Of a DNA stretch of 25,322 nucleotides, positions 15,923 to 25,322 are shown piece by piece (position 1 is the stretch's first letter; every line of letters begins with the position of its first letter). Origin of the DNA: a virus (taxonomy: Duplodnaviria > Caudoviricetes); the IMG/VR virus record IMGVR_UViG_3300025099_000126, positions 1-25,322 of that record. One strand, given 5' to 3'. The notes under the pieces were generated by a model. The model saw only the letters and a list, made by a program, of their open reading frames with translations. It searched no databases and was not told the DNA's origin. Position numbers and translations under genes: made by a program.

Positions 15923-16333
15923 ATGAAATTAAATATTAGAAAAATACAACATGACGACTGGGACACTTTAGTTTCCTGGTGGTTAGAGTGGAGGTACTGG
16001 AAAGTTGCCCCGCCAAAAGATTTTTTACCAGACAATGGAACTGGTGGGTTTATGGTTGAAAAAGACGGTATACCTATAGTTTCAGGTTTTTTATATTTTA
16101 CTAATTCACAAGGCGTTTTGCTAGAGTGGATAGTTTCAAATCCAAACTATAGAGATAGTGATAGAAAAGAAGCTATAATTCTTTTAATAGATACAGCAGA
16201 AGACTTTATAAAAAAACAAGGTAAATCTTATATATTTAGTATAGGTAGAAATAAACATTTAATAAAAATACATGAAGAGTTAGGTTATTCTGTGGATAAA
16301 AAACCTTCTCATGAAATAATAAAAACAATTTAA
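15923..16333 (+). CDS. GNAT-fold acetyltransferase-like protein
   Basis: 136 aa with GNAT topology: NIRKIQHDD, GFMVEKDGIPIVSGFLY, LEWIVSNPNYR, LIDTAEDFIKKQG and terminal HEELGY. Confidence 0.6.
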   Translation: MKLNIRKIQHDDWDTLVSWWLEWRYWKVAPPKDFLPDNGTGGFMVEKDGIPIVSGFLYFTNSQGVLLEWIVSNPNYRDSDRKEAIILLIDTAEDFIKKQGKSYIFSIGRNKHLIKIHEELGYSVDKKPSHEIIKTI

Positions 16334-16334
16334 T

Positions 16335-17060
16335 ATGGCAGCAGTAACAGCAGCGGTCGCTGGCACGGTAGGCGGCGCGTTAGTTAAAGGCATTGGCGCT
16401 AAAAAAGCAGCAAGAAGAGCAGGTAGAAAAGCCGCGGCTGCGCGTAGAGCTATTACAGACCTAGAAGCAAACAGACAAGATGTTATAAATCCTTTTGACA
16501 ATATGGAAGGAGTTGCAGATATGGCTCAAAACTTAACCGGCATGATGTCTAATCCTATGGCTAATTTAGGTGTAGCAACTCAAGCAGCTGAGATGCAAGC
16601 AGAAGAAGCAGATATAGCTCTAGCAAATACTTTAGATACGTTAAGAGCAACTGGAGCTGGTGCTGGAGGAGCTACTGCGTTGGCGCAAATGGCACTTAAA
16701 AGCAAGCAAGGTATAAGTGCTAGTATACAACAACAAGAAGCTCAAAACCAAAAATTAAGAGCTCAAGGAGAACAAAACTTACAACAAAGACAAGTTGCTG
16801 AAGAACAAAGAATACAAGGTGTAGAGATGAACGACGCTGTTAGACTTCAAAATGCTCAATCACAAGGTAGAATGTTTGAATTTAACACACAAGAAAGTAG
16901 AGACAACACTAAGCTTAGTAGATTATACGGACAACAAGCAAATGCAGAAGCTAATCAAGCACAGGCAAGAGCATCTGGTGTTAATGCTTTATCGGGTGGG
17001 TTAACTGGTCTAGGTAGTTTAGCACTAGGCGGAGCTTTTGGTGATATGCCAGGAACCTAA
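16335..17060 (+). CDS. Probable internal virion/ejection protein (small, Ala/Gly/Gln-rich)
   Basis: 241 aa. Hydrophobic Ala/Gly N-terminus followed by a basic stretch, Gln/Ala coiled coil and Gly/Leu C-terminus, as in podoviral ejection proteins. Confidence 0.6.
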   Translation: MAAVTAAVAGTVGGALVKGIGAKKAARRAGRKAAAARRAITDLEANRQDVINPFDNMEGVADMAQNLTGMMSNPMANLGVATQAAEMQAEEADIALANTLDTLRATGAGAGGATALAQMALKSKQGISASIQQQEAQNQKLRAQGEQNLQQRQVAEEQRIQGVEMNDAVRLQNAQSQGRMFEFNTQESRDNTKLSRLYGQQANAEANQAQARASGVNALSGGLTGLGSLALGGAFGDMPGT

Positions 17061-17079
17061 TAATAATAAAAAAAATATA

Positions 17080-18669
17080 ATGGCAAAACAAAATCAAGCA
17101 GGTTACCCAGTAACAGTAATAAAACCTTTTGACGAAAGAGAAATACAATCTATAGCATCGCCTTTTGTTGCTTTAGGAAACGCATGGAAACAAGGTCAAG
17201 ATGCTCTTACTAAAAAACAAAAAGCTATACGCAACAGAGAGGCTACAATGTATGAGACTGCTTACAAAAGTTTAGGTAAAATAGAAAGCGTTGACTATGC
17301 TACTTTTGACGATAATATGAGAAGTTTTTTTGATGGCAAGGTGGATGACTATGTTAAAATAAAAAACAACATTGATTCTGGTCTTATAAACCCTCAAGAA
17401 GGAGCTAGATCATTAGCTTACATATCTAACATGATAGATGAATACAAAACGTTAGCGCCAAAAGTTTTAGCACAAGCTAAATATATGATGGATAACGGCG
17501 CTGGTGGTAACAACTTATTATCAAAGTTAAATGACCCTAATTTAGAAATATTATTTTCAAAATTACTAGAAGGATCTGGAGAGGTTACCTTAGCAGAAGA
17601 TAACAAAGGTAAAATGTACTTAAAAGGTTCTGGTAAGTTAGATGGAGAAGATTGGAACTATGATTTAAACTTAAGTGAGTTTGCAAAATTAGACGGCAAA
17701 GGAGATAGCTTAGCAATAACAACAGTTGATTTAGATGATTTAGGTTTGACTGATGTAGCTAAAGCAGCTTTAGAAGCCTCAACTTATGAAGAACAAAAAG
17801 AAAATGGAACTTCTATAGCTTACACTAATGTTGATCAAGTTAAAAGAGTATTAAGCGGCCCTATGAACAATGCTATTATAGATATAACTAAAGGTGAAGA
17901 CTTTGCTAGTGTGTGGGCTGATCAAATATATAAAGACAAAACAGTAGATGAATTAAAAGAAGAAAATTTACTATGGGATGCTGCTGATCCAGTTAAAATG
18001 AAAACAGCTATTGATTGGCTGATAGATAAAGCTATAGATATAAACGTTCCTATACAACAGCAAATTCAGTTTGAAGGAAGAGGTGAAGATGGTTCTTTTG
18101 ATCCTACTAGTAAAATGATAGGTGTAGATGAAAACTCTACTTTTAATGTAAAACCTAAAATAAAAATTGAAGAAGAAGTTACTGACACGCAAGCTGTAGA
18201 TACAGTTCGTATTTACGCAACTGATCCTATTGGTTCAATGGATTCTACTTCTGTTGACGGAGACGTTGTTTCTACAACTCAAAAAGGAAACATGATAACT
18301 GTTACAACTACAAAAGAAGGTTTTGAGCCTAATGAAAAAACATATAATCTTAGAAAAGAAAAAGATTTTATTGCATATTTTCAAAAAATAAGAGAAAGAA
18401 ACAAAAGGTTTGAAGGCACGGCTCAAGATTCACAAAAAAGAAAAGAAGACTTTTTACAAGAATTAAAAATGGAATTTATTAAACAAGAAAATCAAATAAA
18501 AGATGCGGGTGCTAGAAACGAAATAAGTGATACATACACGCTTGAAGATTTTAAAAATTCAAAAGACACAAGCAACATGAGCTTAGACGAAATAATAAGC
18601 GCGTATAAAAAAGAAGTAGACAAAAGAGTAAAGCAACTTCAAGAAGCTGCTGACTATAAAGTTAAATAA
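17080..18669 (+). CDS. Probable second ejection protein (529 aa; start revised to ATG 17080)
   Basis: ATG at 17080 follows the A-rich leader TAATAATAATAAAAAAAATATA and avoids overlap with the previous gene. Acidic helical protein between the small and giant putative ejection genes. Confidence 0.5.
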   Translation: MAKQNQAGYPVTVIKPFDEREIQSIASPFVALGNAWKQGQDALTKKQKAIRNREATMYETAYKSLGKIESVDYATFDDNMRSFFDGKVDDYVKIKNNIDSGLINPQEGARSLAYISNMIDEYKTLAPKVLAQAKYMMDNGAGGNNLLSKLNDPNLEILFSKLLEGSGEVTLAEDNKGKMYLKGSGKLDGEDWNYDLNLSEFAKLDGKGDSLAITTVDLDDLGLTDVAKAALEASTYEEQKENGTSIAYTNVDQVKRVLSGPMNNAIIDITKGEDFASVWADQIYKDKTVDELKEENLLWDAADPVKMKTAIDWLIDKAIDINVPIQQQIQFEGRGEDGSFDPTSKMIGVDENSTFNVKPKIKIEEEVTDTQAVDTVRIYATDPIGSMDSTSVDGDVVSTTQKGNMITVTTTKEGFEPNEKTYNLRKEKDFIAYFQKIRERNKRFEGTAQDSQKRKEDFLQELKMEFIKQENQIKDAGARNEISDTYTLEDFKNSKDTSNMSLDEIISAYKKEVDKRVKQLQEAADYKVK

Positions 18670-18676
18670 TATACAT

Positions 18677-21600
18677 ATGAATCAACCAGAATTTTATACA
18701 GCAATTGGTTTTGACGAACCGGTTGATATAAATGAATTAAGTGAAGAAAATAGAAAGTTCTTTTTTGAACAGTTCTCACCTAAACCAGTAAAGAAAAACG
18801 ATCCTGCTGTAAATGCGGAGACCAATGTGGGATCGACAAACAATACGGTCTCACAATCGGTGGATGGTTCTTTGGAATTACAAGAAGCTAAAAAATTAAT
18901 AAAAGAAGATTTATTTAGTAAAGAAAAAAAAGAAAAGCTAACTTTAGAGGCTGACGAGGCGTATAACGCGTTAGAGCAAGATATTTCTAATCAAACCACT
19001 AGAAGAGAGGAGGCTAATCAAGCGACAGAGTTTATGTTTTCAAATATGAGTATGTTTGATAAGTCTTCTTTTAAAGGTCCTTTTAGTGATGAAGACAATA
19101 AAAATGTTTCTAAAGATACTCAAAAAAACACTATATTAAATGACGCGTATTATTATTCTTTAAGTCTTATGGATAAACTTGCGCTTGGTGGTAGAAATAC
19201 AGATGCTGATGGATCAGAAAGAGCACCTTTAACTGAAAAAGATATAGAACAACAAAATAGCAATATTATTGAAGGTAAGAAATTACTAAAAGACAGTAGA
19301 GAGGTTAAAAATTTTAATTTACTTAAAAAAAATAGAGAACAAGTAGCTATAGACGCGTTACAGTCGCAAAACAATAAAAACATTTCTGACGAACAAGTGT
19401 TAGATTATGTAGATAAAAACAAAGAAGACGAAAATTTTAAAACAAGTGTTAAAGATTTTTTTGTAAAAGGCTATATAAAAGAAAGGCAAAAAGAAGCCAT
19501 AATAGAACGTAATAAAAAAGAATCTGGCTGGGATGGTTTTACAGAAGGTGAAAATCAAAATAGATTAGAAGAAGCCGCTGCTTTAGTTTCTAGTAGTTTA
19601 GACGAAGAAGCTCAAAGTAACATAGCCACATCTGTAAACATAGATTCTAAAATACAAAAAATTGAGCAATCACTAAAGTCTTTGCAAACTTTAAGGCCAA
19701 AAAATCAAGAAGAAGCTGATTTAATAATAGAGCAAGCGGGTTTATTTATAAAAGAAAGACAAGGACTAGTTAATGCTTATGGTGAATTAGTTAATAAGCA
19801 AATAGAAATAGGTACTGAAGCAAAAGACATTAGAGGTTACTTAGACACTGTTAGTCGTAACCAAGGTTGGTTAGTAAACCCTATTGGTGCTTTAGTAGGC
19901 GGTGTATATGATTTTGTTAATAACGTTGACGAATTTGTAGATAGACTTAGTTATACTCCTTTTGAAATGGCTGCTGATTTAATTAAAGTTAAAACAGATG
20001 AAAATTCTTGGCTTCACAAAGGTGTATTAGCTATGGAAGGATTAGAAAAAACTAATTTTGGTGTTGATACAGCTATAAAAAACATGAGAAACGGTTTAGC
20101 AGAACCTATAAGTGTTACTGACATAAACAATTGGAGTGACATGTGGCAGTGGAGTTCTTATTTAGTAGGATCTCAAGCAACAAACACAGCTGTCATGTTA
20201 ACAACAGGTGGTTGGGCATTACCATTGTTAGGCGCAAGCTCAGCAGGTGCTTCGTTTAACAGTATGCAAGAAGAAATAGACTTGTATGGAGCTGAATACA
20301 CGCCTCTTCAAATGTATACAGTTGCTTTAGGTAGTGGTTTAGCAGAAGCTTTAAGCGAAAGAATAACTTTAGGTCAATTAAATAGAATAAAAAGAGGTTT
20401 AGCGGCTAGTAAAAAGTCTTTAAAACAAGGTACTTTTGATTACATTAAAAGCTTGTCTACAAGTAAAGGTAGAAAAAATGCTGCTTTAGGAGCTTTTGTA
20501 TATGGTAAAGAAACTTTTGAAGAAGGTTTTACTGAATCTGTAGCTGGTTTTTCACAAAGAGCTTTAGAAAGATATGTGTTAGGTAAAGATGTTGACCTGT
20601 TTGAAGGTATGTTAGACGAGTTTGTGTCTGGAGCATTTATGAGTGGTTTTGTTTATAAAGCACCAGGTTTAGGTATTAAAATGTATAGAGCGTTTCAACC
20701 ACCTGATTCTAACGAAGCAATAGGTAAGATTCAGACAAGAATGGACGAAATAGGTAACATACTTATGAACAATCCTTCTATGGATATTCGTGTTAGAAAA
20801 AAATTAGAAGACGAATTACAAGAAGGTGCTACTAAAGTTCAGCAGATAATGTCTAGGGATTTTAAAAACATGGACAAAATGACTCAGCAAGAGCAGAGTG
20901 ATTTAATGAAAAAAGAAGATCAAATATATAAGTTGAGACAACTGTATGACGCTACTCTTAATGATAATACTATAAACGAAAAAGATAAAACAGATATATT
21001 AAATAGTTTAAATGCTGAGTTTAAATCTATAAGAAACGACAAGGTAAAAATATTATCTGAAGTTAATGTAAGAGAAGAAATAGCTTTAGCTCAAAAGCTA
21101 GGCAAGGAAACAGGTAGAACAGATTTTGGTGACAACGCGGTTGGAACAGGTCAAGCTGTAGAAGTTGTAGAAGATGACGCTGCTTTTATGGAAATGACTA
21201 AGATAAAAGAAACAGGTGTTGAAGGTACTGAGTTAGATAATGGTCAAATAGTTCTTAACAAAGCTCAAATGCTTGCCTCTGCTATGCGTAACGATGGTAA
21301 TATAGGTACTGGTATACATGAGGTTTTACATAAAGTATTAAAATCTGAATTTAGTAGTAAAGATCCAGCAAAAGCTAAAAAATTAAAAGACCAATTTTTA
21401 AAAGTACTAAAATCTGAAAATAAATCAATACATGATTTAGTTATAGCTAGAGCTGATGCAAATTACAGTCCAGATTATTTAGAAAAAAATCCTGATGAAT
21501 ACATTACAATATTCGCTAGTGTATTAAAAGAAAACAATATAGAGTACAGCCAAGCGACAGATAGTGTGTTTAAAAAATTAGCTAACTTTGTTGGTGGCTT

Positions 21601-24600
21601 ATTTAGTAGTAAATTAGATGTTGATCCAAACGACTTTAAATTTAAAGACGGTAAAGATTTATATAACTTTGTTCAAACATATGTTAAAAACACTTCTGAG
21701 GGTAAAATATCTGACAGAGCTAAAAAGCTAGCAGATGCAGGTAAAGATATTACAACTGATATTAAACTTTCTAAAAATGCTTCTGACACTGTTCAAGAAA
21801 TATTTGAAACTAAAGGTAAAGATGGTGCTTTTGAAATAATAGAACAATACAGAGGTATGGCTAATAAGTTGGCTAATAAATACCAAAACGTACCAGGCTT
21901 TGAAAGACAACTACTTGTTGACGAAATACTAACAGGTAAACGTGGTGTTATAGATATGATAAACGAATATAAAGCAGACACTAATGTTCCTTTAGCCGCT
22001 TATATAAATAAATTTTTATCATCAAGATCTATAGAAGCTGCTAATAGAGTTTTAAAACAAGAGTTTGAAACTGATGTCACAGAGGCTAAAGCAGTTGTAG
22101 CTAAAGAAGCTTCTACAGAAGTTGAAGCAGAAACAAAAGCTAAACCAAAGCCTAGGTTAAGAAAAGATTTAAAGTTACAAGATGATGTTATAGACAAAAT
22201 TAAAAACGCTGTAATCAAAACTTTTGGAACTAAACTACCTAGTGTTAAATCACCTCAGTTTAAAAAAGAACTAGAAAAACAATTTAAAACAGAACTAAAA
22301 CCTGTTATAGCTAAATTGATGGGTAGAACTGATAGTTACGAAACTTTTTTAAGAGATAATTTTGAAGCTATATATAAAGCATTGCCTCAAGAAATAATAA
22401 ACAAAAGATTTAGAGACTTTGCAGATCCTGTAATGAAAGACGGTAAACAGGTAAGAGAAAAGACAGCGCAAGGTAATGCTGTTTTTACTAAGAAAAAAAT
22501 TACTAAAGCTGAATTTATAAAATACTTTTTAGGTTCTGATGTAGGTAGATCAACTCAAGGAACTAGAAAAACTGCATTAGCAGAAGCATTAGCTCAAGAG
22601 TTAGCCTTAGACGCTACTATGGAAGTCATACAAAACCCAGGTGTGTTAGAAAAAGCTATAGCTATATCTAACCTAGTAGATGGTGACTTTACTATAGAAG
22701 GAGTTTCTTTAAGTATAAAAAGACCTAAAGGCGTTAAGTTCTCTAAAGTTGAATTAAACGACTTTAATGACGATGTGGCTGATCAATTAACTTTAACCAA
22801 CGCTTTTCAAAGTGGTCCTTTTAACACTGTTAAGCTACAACAGTACAATAGTCAAGCACTTAATTATAAAAAATTATTAAAAGATCTAAATGTTGAAGGT
22901 TTTGATATGAAAACTGCCAAAGGTAGAAAACAGTTTTTAGATTATGCTTATACTCGCAATATGATAACTAAATTTCCTAAAGCTTTCTGGAGAAGTATGC
23001 AAGGAACAACTGATGACGCTGTTTTAGATCCAAATATTCGTTCTAAATCTGAATCACAGTCCGATACTGGTTACCAAATTTCTATGCAAGAATTAGACGA
23101 AGCTGGAAATATAGTGTCAATTGGTTATGATGTAGATACGTTTGACAGTAGTACTTTAAGAGATTTTGCTGGTAACTTACCTTTTAGAAGTGTAACAGAA
23201 GCAGACGCTTGGATAGATCAAATTGAAAATGGAGAATATGAAATAGACGGTGTAATACAACCTGCTGTTAAGTTTGCAAACGAAAATTCTATTAGTCCTA
23301 ATATGATGGCTGCTTTGTCAAGCACAAAGTACACCAACATGAAAGAAAATGGCAAACAAAGTTTTAACAAAATAAAAACTAGTAAGTTTCAAGCTGAGCA
23401 AGACAAATCAATAGATGGGTTAAAAGAAATATTTTTAATATTTGAGCAAGCTATTAAAGATGATAAAAACGCGGCTGCTTTTGTTGCGGCTATATTATCT
23501 TCTACAGCTTCTAATCAAGGTCATTTCATGAGAACATCTGCGCCTATTAGATTTTTTACAACTAATTTGCAAGCTGGGCCAAAAGGAATAAAATTTGTAG
23601 AAGAACACAGCTTACCAGCCTCAAGTGTTGCTAAGTATTTATTTGCATTAGCTATAAACGGAACAGTAGAATCTAAATTTGACGGCGTTAAAAACAATTA
23701 TTATCAAGGCGCGATAAATAGCATAGATGATAAGAAATTAAAAGGAACAATGTTAAATGGTGAAAAGTTTAACTATGGTTCTGTAATGCCTTTAGGTTGG
23801 ACTATAAACGACCAAACATGGGCTAGATACTTTAATATTAACGTAGGTAATACAAGAGGAGGTATTGATCCTGCTAAAATAATATGGAACGACGGTAAAA
23901 GTATTGCTGAAAAAACAGGCGTTAATTCATATGGCTTTATAGCTAAAGGAGAAACTAAAATTACCGAAAAAGAAGCAAAAACTCAAAACGGAAAGCTGTC
24001 TAGAAATATACCAGTCGATGCTTCTATTAGTAAACAAGTTGAAATAATGTCTAACATGGATAAAACCATGAAGCTTGCTAGAAACATTAATACACCTGAA
24101 AAGGGTATCAGTGTGTTTGACTTTGACGATACTTTAGCTAGAACAAGCAGCAAAATTATAGTAACCATGCCTAACGGTAAGGTTATGAAAATTAACGCTA
24201 CTGAGTTTGCTAAAAGAGACGCAGAGCTTACAGCGAAAGGAGCTAAGTATAATTTTAGCGAATTTAATAAAGTTATTAATGGCAAAAAAGGACCACTTGC
24301 TGATTTAGCATTAAAACGTCAAGGTAAGTTTGGTAGTAAAGATATATTTGTATTAACAGCTAGACCACAAATAGCAGCTGATGCAATTAAAAAGTTTTTA
24401 GACGGTATAGGATTAAGTCTACCTTTAGAAAACATTACAGGTTTAGAAAACGGAACACCACAAGCAAAAGCTGATTGGGTTTTATCTAAAACAGCTCTAG
24501 GTTATAATAATTTTTATTTTGCTGACGACGCAATTAAAAATGTTAAAGCAGTTAAACAAATACTAGATCAAGTTGATGTTAAGTCAAAAGTTCAAATAGC

Positions 24601-25322
24601 TAAATTTAGTAAAGCATCAAACCTCAATAAACAGTTTAACGACATTATAGAAGACGCAACAGGTATTGCTAATTACAAAAACTTTTCAACAGCAAGAGCA
24701 AGAACTTTAGGTAGAGGTAAAAGTGCGGGTTGGTTTATACCTCCTCAAGCTGAGGACTTTGTAGGTTTATTGTATCCTTTATTAGGTAAAGGCAAAACTG
24801 GTGACGCAGGTATGAAGTTTTTTAAAGAAAACTTACTAGATCCTTTTAATAAAGCTGAAAATGCTTTAACACAGGCTAAAATATCTGTAGCTAATGATTT
24901 TAGAGCTCTTAAAAAACAATTTAAAACTATACCTAAAACTCTCAAAAAAGAGGCTATGGATGGTTTTACATATGGAGACGCTGTAAGAACTTATATATGG
25001 TCTCAACAAGGTATGGAGATACCTGGTTTATCAAAAAGAGATGGTGTTGAATTAATTTCGTTTATAGAAAACGACATAGAGCTAAAACAGTTTGCTCAAG
25101 GTTTACAAATGATACAAAAAGATAGAATGTATCCTGAACCTGATGAGTCTTGGTTGTCTGGAACTATTACAACTGACATAATAGGAGGTATAAACAATGT
25201 TGTAAGAAAAGATTATTTACAAGAGTGGGAACAAAATATAGATATTATATTTTCACCTGAAAATCTAAATAAATTAGAAGCTGCTTACGGTCAAAACTAT
25301 AGAGAAGCTTTAGAAAATATTA
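18677..25322 (+). CDS. Giant multi-domain (polyvalent) virion/ejection protein, 3'-partial, at least 2215 codons
   Basis: ATG at 18677 (MNQPEFYTAIG...). Segments I translated are all in one frame and no terminated + ORF is listed here, so it appears to run off the window. Contains Gly/Ala hydrophobic helices (~20180-20680), HEVLH (21317-21331), a sigma-like segment (~21833-22055), EEHSLP (23600-23617) and HAD motifs DFDDT/LTAR/K/FADD (24119-24529). Confidence 0.85.
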   Translation, partial: MNQPEFYTAIGFDEPVDINELSEENRKFFFEQFSPKPVKKNDPAVNAETNVGSTNNTVSQSVDGSLELQEAKKLIKEDLFSKEKKEKLTLEADEAYNALEQDISNQTTRREEANQATEFMFSNMSMFDKSSFKGPFSDEDNKNVSKDTQKNTILNDAYYYSLSLMDKLALGGRNTDADGSERAPLTEKDIEQQNSNIIEGKKLLKDSREVKNFNLLKKNREQVAIDALQSQNNKNISDEQVLDYVDKNKEDENFKTSVKDFFVKGYIKERQKEAIIERNKKESGWDGFTEGENQNRLEEAAALVSSSLDEEAQSNIATSVNIDSKIQKIEQSLKSLQTLRPKNQEEADLIIEQAGLFIKERQGLVNAYGELVNKQIEIGTEAKDIRGYLDTVSRNQGWLVNPIGALVGGVYDFVNNVDEFVDRLSYTPFEMAADLIKVKTDENSWLHKGVLAMEGLEKTNFGVDTAIKNMRNGLAEPISVTDINNWSDMWQWSSYLVGSQATNTAVMLTTGGWALPLLGASSAGASFNSMQEEIDLYGAEYTPLQMYTVALGSGLAEALSERITLGQLNRIKRGLAASKKSLKQGTFDYIKSLSTSKGRKNAALGAFVYGKETFEEGFTESVAGFSQRALERYVLGKDVDLFEGMLDEFVSGAFMSGFVYKAPGLGIKMYRAFQPPDSNEAIGKIQTRMDEIGNILMNNPSMDIRVRKKLEDELQEGATKVQQIMSRDFKNMDKMTQQEQSDLMKKEDQIYKLRQLYDATLNDNTINEKDKTDILNSLNAEFKSIRNDKVKILSEVNVREEIALAQKLGKETGRTDFGDNAVGTGQAVEVVEDDAAFMEMTKIKETGVEGTELDNGQIVLNKAQMLASAMRNDGNIGTGIHEVLHKVLKSEFSSKDPAKAKKLKDQFLKVLKSENKSIHDLVIARADANYSPDYLEKNPDEYITIFASVLKENNIEYSQATDSVFKKLANFVGGLFSSKLDVDPNDFKFKDGKDLYNFVQTYVKNTSEGKISDRAKKLADAGKDITTDIKLSKNASDTVQEIFETKGKDGAFEIIEQYRGMANKLANKYQNVPGFERQLLVDEILTGKRGVIDMINEYKADTNVPLAAYINKFLSSRSIEAANRVLKQEFETDVTEAKAVVAKEASTEVEAETKAKPKPRLRKDLKLQDDVIDKIKNAVIKTFGTKLPSVKSPQFKKELEKQFKTELKPVIAKLMGRTDSYETFLRDNFEAIYKALPQEIINKRFRDFADPVMKDGKQVREKTAQGNAVFTKKKITKAEFIKYFLGSDVGRSTQGTRKTALAEALAQELALDATMEVIQNPGVLEKAIAISNLVDGDFTIEGVSLSIKRPKGVKFSKVELNDFNDDVADQLTLTNAFQSGPFNTVKLQQYNSQALNYKKLLKDLNVEGFDMKTAKGRKQFLDYAYTRNMITKFPKAFWRSMQGTTDDAVLDPNIRSKSESQSDTGYQISMQELDEAGNIVSIGYDVDTFDSSTLRDFAGNLPFRSVTEADAWIDQIENGEYEIDGVIQPAVKFANENSISPNMMAALSSTKYTNMKENGKQSFNKIKTSKFQAEQDKSIDGLKEIFLIFEQAIKDDKNAAAFVAAILSSTASNQGHFMRTSAPIRFFTTNLQAGPKGIKFVEEHSLPASSVAKYLFALAINGTVESKFDGVKNNYYQGAINSIDDKKLKGTMLNGEKFNYGSVMPLGWTINDQTWARYFNINVGNTRGGIDPAKIIWNDGKSIAEKTGVNSYGFIAKGETKITEKEAKTQNGKLSRNIPVDASISKQVEIMSNMDKTMKLARNINTPEKGISVFDFDDTLARTSSKIIVTMPNGKVMKINATEFAKRDAELTAKGAKYNFSEFNKVINGKKGPLADLALKRQGKFGSKDIFVLTARPQIAADAIKKFLDGIGLSLPLENITGLENGTPQAKADWVLSKTALGYNNFYFADDAIKNVKAVKQILDQVDVKSKVQIAKFSKASNLNKQFNDIIEDATGIANYKNFSTARARTLGRGKSAGWFIPPQAEDFVGLLYPLLGKGKTGDAGMKFFKENLLDPFNKAENALTQAKISVANDFRALKKQFKTIPKTLKKEAMDGFTYGDAVRTYIWSQQGMEIPGLSKRDGVELISFIENDIELKQFAQGLQMIQKDRMYPEPDESWLSGTITTDIIGGINNVVRKDYLQEWEQNIDIIFSPENLNKLEAAYGQNYREALENI
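18784..18891 (+). other. Candidate programmed -1 frameshift cassette giving a Cys-rich alternative C-terminus (..EKRSCCKCGDQCGIDKQYGLTIGGWFFGITRS*)
   Basis: The -1 frame is open between TAA 18781-18783 and TAA 18889-18891 with no start codon. A_AAG at 18790-18793 (G_AAA_AAC at 18793-18799), then an 8-bp stem GATCCTGC/GTGGGATC (18800-18834, two G-U pairs). Local GC elevation. Confidence 0.5.

Follow-up and report, generated by a model that had tools for sequence, protein, structure and literature searches.

The giant virion-protein gene that closes the analysed stretch of phage DNA (a single contig of 25,322 nt, hereafter the window) very probably encodes a second, short protein. Conservation among relatives argues that a minority of ribosomes slip at an A_AAG tetramer near the start of this gene, with a predicted pseudoknot positioned 5-6 nt downstream, giving a 71-residue product. 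A -1 shift at A_AAG, with a short product sharing the N-terminus of the giant protein, had been proposed by the initial annotation, and the comparison of related sequences now strongly supports it. According to the proposed mechanism, ribosomes on the giant gene would stall at the pseudoknot, and tRNA-Lys would slip from AAG to AAA, moving the ribosome back by one base. The product of the -1 frame would thus share the first 39 residues with the giant protein, followed by a basic linker with Cys residues and then by a predicted beta-hairpin. In all likelihood, shifting occurs in the host through this slippage of tRNA-Lys. By analogy with measured sites, its efficiency may amount to a few percent in the window, and would be higher in relatives with G_GGA_AAG or A_AAA_AAG.

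The phage and the element in the window

The window belongs to a tailed marine phage and holds 13 genes, arranged in the order terminase, portal, capsid, virion genes, a crAss muzzle-like gene, three smaller genes and the giant ORF. Judged by sequence, the phage appears to be a member of a crAss-related podophage cluster, akin to the Flavobacteria phages Panino and phi38:1, and the relatives of its capsid protein in culture are found in Maribacter phage Panino (49%), the Flavobacterium elemo phages, and Cellulophaga phi38:1 and phi18:3. The three smaller syntenic genes that follow the muzzle gene and precede the giant gene (136, 241 and 529 aa; 15923..18669, on the plus strand, as are the giant gene and the parts of the element) serve here as context only. 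The 136-aa gene (15923-16333) has a counterpart at the same position in MW202828 that is annotated as acetyltransferase-like, and in some relatives (L013:9881-10798, L018, L026) the 241-aa neighbour is extended at its C-terminus by a domain of about 60 aa. No match to cultured phages was obtained by blastn with the element region or by tblastn with the 241-aa neighbour. At the other end of the window, the terminase gene exhibits highly atypical codon use at 300-870 (GC3 0.56-0.78, the lowest adaptation in the window), and an open +1 frame of 235 codons lies over it at 168-875; this stretch may have been recombined in or may hold an overlapping ORF.

The giant gene (18677..25321) encodes more than 2215 aa, runs off the window, and is a virion-protein homolog within the virion cluster. 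In blastp searches its protein matched gp101 of phi38:1, annotated as a structural protein (E 2e-19), and gp18 of elemo (E 8e-11), and the positional counterpart in phi18:3 owes its annotation to virion MS/MS. The protein holds an HEVLH zincin-like motif at aa 881 and, from the order of the genes, could be ejected cargo.

The first 39 codons (18677..18793) are common to the giant and the short product and end with the slippery site A_GTA_AAG (18787..18793), whose A_AAG tetramer occupies 18790-18793. The GTA AAG AAA AAC string lies at 18788-18799, where the initial annotation had placed it, and the overlapping -1 frame (18784..18891) is bounded as described there, by TAA at 18781..18783 upstream and TAA at 18889-18891 downstream. 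It contains 35 open codons (18784-18888), four of them for Cys, and no ATG, GTG or TTG. The 32 codons used after the shift comprise the basic, Cys-containing linker and the conserved motif YGLTIGGWFFGI (18844..18879), predicted to be a beta-hairpin, as in the AlphaFold model of an in-frame relative, so that a shift at A_AAG yields 39 + 32 = 71 aa. The atypical codons noticed in the 0 frame are likewise real, if moderate in degree, falling in the lowest 0.7% of 2183 giant-gene windows and 3.6% of 7934 windows from the 13 genes. Another candidate slip site, G_AAA_AAC, was rejected, being not conserved and abutting the stem. The site in the window is a tetramer and not a tandem heptamer.

By themselves, open -1 frames of 35 codons are frequent, with 11 in the 25 kb of coding sequence, and so are in-frame A_AAG tetramers (15 in the giant gene); the single-window features, namely the open frame, A_AAG and the stem, are therefore within chance, while their conservation is beyond it. 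Scored together with its pseudoknot, the site is the best of the 229 slip-type sites in the genes of the window (score 37, the next being 28).

A contig from an independent DNA run is identical to the window over 18682-19017, and the element sequence is thus not an assembly error. The contig of a relative is alike up to 18910 and diverges just beyond the -1 stop. In two runs, contigs match the window only over 18787-18860, that is, the slip site and the pseudoknot, with different sequence upstream, which suggests that the element may move as a module. Contigs from RNA libraries also span the element, and are uninformative on strand, level and slippage.

Pseudoknot, slip sites and the -1 frame in relatives

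The 8-bp stem at 18800-18834 that the initial annotation had seen downstream of the site does fold (-8.4 kcal/mol), but not as a lone stem: it is stem 1 of a predicted H-type pseudoknot. Taken alone it is within chance (z -1.21, with 22 of 200 shuffles as good). In the full structure, supported by folding and covariation, stem 1 has 9 bp (18799..18807 with 18827..18835; -11.9 kcal/mol), and stem 2 is formed between 18818..18823, within the loop of stem 1, and 18847..18852, which shares bases with the Gly-Leu codons in the -1 motif (duplex -8.3 kcal/mol). The spacer (18794..18798) measures 5 nt, or 6 nt if C18799 and G18835 are unpaired, and is 5-7 nt long in 79 of 80 strong pseudoknots. A predicted and covarying structure hence lies within 5-8 nt downstream of the site, as expected of a stimulator.

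Stem 2 shows compensatory changes in L008 and in the distant L007. When 29 elements selected for their similar geometry were aligned with MAFFT, 93% of the cells were paired and 11 of 14 pairs had changed on both sides; the covariation score was reached by none of 500 shuffles, and slid controls were 29-42% paired. Furthermore, 90 of the 112 elements with room for the structure beat all 12 of their shuffles, in a control that slightly favours the real sequence. A pseudoknot search blind to both the peptide and the slip site retrieved 55 of 93 genes, 48 of them with an in-phase site 5-7 nt upstream, against a null that is not small (16/90). In the window, stem 1 faces competition from a rival 10-bp hairpin (18826-18855, -12.6 kcal/mol) whose formation excludes the pseudoknot. 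It is also present in L003 and is absent in L004 and L040; it is possibly an attenuator, and could lower the shift rate in the window strain.

Homologous giant genes were collected in two ways. Fetching loci via the 241-aa neighbour gave 129 entries, of which 104 reach the start of the giant gene and 93 are distinct, and searching with a nucleotide pattern that encodes the peptide returned 120 loci, out of roughly 400 estimated in IMG/VR. The initial annotation had looked to the conservation of the -1 peptide, and the motif YG(I/F)x(I/F)GxW/YF(F/I)G(I/F) was indeed present in the -1 frame of 44 of the 93 neighbour-selected genes. The +1 frame had it in 0/93, and of 762 internal windows a single one did. 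It also occurred in 33 of 59 genes fetched later, some of whose contigs overlap the motif-selected set. In that set, 117 of the 120 matches overlap a long or open ORF and are read in its -1 frame, mostly 48-111 codons past the ATG and with a stop soon after; the remaining three are one true element with an early 0-frame stop and two chance-like matches. All these counts refer to related sequences, and to motifs and slip classes defined after part of the data had been viewed.

A peptide HMM, built with some of the neighbour-selected rows included, found the element in 62 of the 93 genes and gave no other match of at least 15 bits in 67,378 segments. The element is thus not universal, as 31 of the 93 syntenic giant genes are devoid of it by HMM, and no standalone gene for the peptide was found in the DNA of these 31 loci. 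The 136-aa gene is commoner in loci bearing the element (35/62) than in those without it (5/31), a difference confounded by kinship. Strict dependence of the element on this gene can be dismissed, with both present in 35 loci, the element only in 27, neither in 26, and the gene only in 5.

The pattern of substitutions points to a translated -1 frame. Among the 48 genes selected blind to the peptide, entropy over the motif peaks at the -1 wobble position (1.36, compared with 0.90 and 1.04), and three Gly codons have GG fixed with the third base free. Codon changes were synonymous in 248 of 526 cases (47%) in the -1 frame and in 100 of 557 (18%) in frame 0, as counted over 102 non-independent pairs from 43 neighbour-selected elements picked by a -1 regular expression. 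Substitutions therein follow the -1 frame, and the open frame is under selection.

Both sets were pooled into 146 distinct elements, and the slippery site inferred initially from the window alone has proved constant in phase and swapped in sequence among relatives. An in-phase slip-type site is present in all 146 (null 50%), a perfect heptamer in 108 (null 21%), and a perfect heptamer or A_AAG in 132 (null 31%), with a U-run class added post hoc and three rows anchored at the wrong regex match. The commonest primary site is G_GGA_AAG (42), followed by A_GTA_AAG (16 of the 112 pseudoknot-type elements, the window included), A_AAT_TTT and G_GAT_TTT (9 each) and A_AAA_AAG (8). On a quick tree of the neighbour gene, site class changed 33 times, meaning repeated switching. 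In the E. coli measurements reported by Sharma et al. 2014 (PMC4066793), A_AAG, followed by U_UUC and U_UUU, is the best tetramer, reaching up to 5.6% shifting with the IS3 pseudoknot, and G_GGA_AAG and A_AAA_AAG are among the best heptamers; the sites used in the elements match the top of that ranking.

Another 29 elements, mostly without Cys, carry a bare A9 or A10 run just ahead of the motif, with no room for a pseudoknot; such runs were absent from 22,305 nt downstream. Runs of 9 A or T are described as supporting polymerase slippage (PMC5009743). At the corresponding position, the cultured phages phi38:1, phi18:3, Panino and elemo possess a run of A9-A11; their degenerate peptides, read by eye, were not detected by the HMM. 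The run is in frame in phi38:1 and elemo (A10) and in MW202828 (A11). In Panino (A9; L057:31586-31840) and phi18:3 (L261:34732-35100), by contrast, the N-terminal module and the giant ORF are in different frames on either side of the A run. The true start of the giant gene in Panino is probably unannotated, and this phage has two copies of the motif. In a further locus, L060, the N-terminal module reads directly into the peptide, and the giant protein would need the shift. The frame states of these three may be real phase states or homopolymer errors, gp122 and gp123 of phi18:3 may be a single recoded gene, and the annotated giant-gene starts of Panino and phi18:3 may be wrong.

The short product and its possible role

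Across the elements the product has a median of 83 aa in total, with a tail of median net charge +5 and aromatic alternation, placed behind N-terminal modules that vary widely. Searching 1.84 billion proteins with the peptide profile retrieved 25 matches of 58-127 aa, nearly all with the C-terminal motif behind the same kinds of N-terminal module. Ten were looked up and none had a functional name; eight of these were singletons, and some in-frame database proteins may therefore be indel artefacts. Two proteins, P0007 and P0022, seemingly contain the element region twice in tandem, with the first or second copy read in frame 0 and the remaining one in -1. The AlphaFold model of a natural in-frame relative, P0003, presents two helices, a disordered Cys linker (pLDDT under 50) and a two-strand hairpin (46-53, 56-63), at a mean pLDDT of 67 and pTM of 0.35. 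Searches of the product against Pfam, PHROGs, NCBIfam, PDB sequences, the ESM Atlas and Foldseek-PDB returned nothing significant, a GNAT strand in 3dns reaching E 0.15, and Rfam gave nothing at the element.

The initial annotation had taken the product for a metal-binding protein. Its Cys cluster is indeed selected in pseudoknot-type elements, exceeding a pairing-preserving null that ignores frame-0 residues (2.85 vs 0.57, in 79 of 80), and 98 of 112 such elements have at least two Cys at variable spacing, but it is absent from most of the 29 poly-A types. Since these mostly do without Cys, the conserved core is the basic, predicted beta-hairpin tail and not metal binding.

Tentatively, we favour a role as a helper of virion assembly or ejection. 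The shared N-terminal module would route the product with the giant cargo protein or bind it to that protein, the hairpin would dock on a virion partner or on the membrane, and the shift would set the ratio of the giant to the short product. The absence of the element from 31 of 93 syntenic genes counts against an essential role.

Alternatively, the shift could be real and the product a membrane-active cationic beta-hairpin working outside the virion, in lysis or outer-membrane disruption, superinfection exclusion or host-protein binding. The charge and aromatic alternation of the tail, together with the predicted hairpin, may liken it to hairpin antimicrobial peptides, and the variability of the N-terminal modules would place the function in the tail. 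However, the tail is always fused behind the N-terminal module of the giant protein, a separate gene for it was never found in the loci scanned, and its strands are probably short for a bilayer; we consider this role rather unlikely, and the virion-helper role preferable.

It is improbable that the shift merely lowers the output of the giant protein, with the peptide a by-product or a degradation tag. The -1 frame does end soon past the motif, and in Panino and phi18:3 the giant frame itself requires a shift at the A run, but past the pseudoknot, too, changes are synonymous and preserve the 12-residue motif, poly-A types retain it with no pseudoknot at all, and Cys exceeds the structure-preserving null.

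Polymerase slippage would suit the 29 relatives with A9/A10 runs, which are of the length classic for it (PMC5009743). For the window, RNA-polymerase slippage or internal initiation in place of ribosomal slippage is very improbable, as no run of at least 9 A or T is found at the element, the -1 frame lacks a start codon, and the pseudoknot lies at ribosome-stalling distance. Least credible of all is an untranslated -1 frame in which a conserved RNA structure and a low-complexity frame-0 linker mimic a coding signal, which could draw on the commonness of the single-window features and the overlap of stem 2 with part of the motif, but is opposed by the phase-locked slip sites of several different sequences, the wobble signature in -1 and the in-frame cases.

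Known recoding systems and meaning for the phage group

The element works like the IS3 and G/GT frameshifts, and its protein family is undescribed. With the IS3 family it shares A_AAG, a pseudoknot stimulator 5-8 nt downstream and the same ranking of shifty motifs (PMC4066793). It differs in residing in a phage virion gene and not a transposase, and in that the shift truncates to a short protein, whereas in IS3 it fuses two ORFs. The shift of lambda gpG/gpGT, a tail assembly chaperone, uses G_GGA_AAG, the commonest site among the relatives. As in lambda, a -1 shift conserved in tailed dsDNA phages yields two proteins that share their N-terminus and are made in a set proportion (PMC5009743). 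Here, however, the cluster is of the podophage type, with terminase, portal, capsid, muzzle-like and giant genes and no tape measure gene seen, the shift lies near the 5' end (codon 39 of an ORF of more than 2215 codons), the long product is the unshifted one, a pseudoknot is present, and no homology was found. In G/GT, the gene lies between those for the major tail protein and the tape measure in long-tailed phages, and shifting near the 3' end lengthens a short ORF; by gene position and shift geometry, the element is not a G/GT member.

In dnaX the shifted frame stops almost immediately, whereas here the new frame adds a selected tail of about 32 residues. The likeness to dnaX tau/gamma lies in the shorter shifted product and in related genomes using ribosomal or poly-A slippage signals, dnaX being ribosomal in E. 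coli and in Thermus relying on a 9-base run at which the polymerase slips (PMC5009743). Short overlapping ORFs in a long ORF, recoded with diverse stimulators, are also known from the RNA-virus transframe products alphavirus 6K/TF, flavivirus NS1' and potyvirus P3N-PIPO (PMC5009743), from which the element differs in belonging to a bacterial dsDNA phage and in its unrelated sequence. Phage T7 has an internal virion cluster, gp13-gp16, and small virion proteins, gp6.7 and gp7.3, from separate genes. The window resembles it in having a small gene followed by genes of about 240 aa, 530 aa and giant size, and in its putative small virion helper.

No prior description of the element was found in searches of open-access papers, and the portion of PMC10274946 drawn on here mentions neither Flavobacter nor Cellulophaga. 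As far as these sources go, phage frameshifts are known mainly in tail chaperone, capsid and tail genes (PMC5009743, PMC10274946), and here a pseudoknot-type signal is situated in an internal virion-protein gene. The product has been missed by gene callers, with about 400 matching stretches estimated in IMG/VR. One conserved peptide reached via two kinds of signal offers a natural comparison of ribosomal and polymerase slippage, and the system is testable now, since phi38:1, phi18:3, Panino and elemo carry the A9-A11 run at the same spot.

In its widest and more speculative form, the finding would mean that a large group of podophages of marine Flavobacteria possesses an unannotated protein family at the head of the gene for a giant ejected protein, expressed through interchangeable recoding devices, either a pseudoknot-driven ribosomal slip or a poly-A polymerase slip. 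Its members may then be an essential virion part, with the N-terminal module loading or pairing with the giant cargo and the hairpin anchoring in the head or in the host membrane, and would constitute the podophage counterpart of the G/GT ratio switch.
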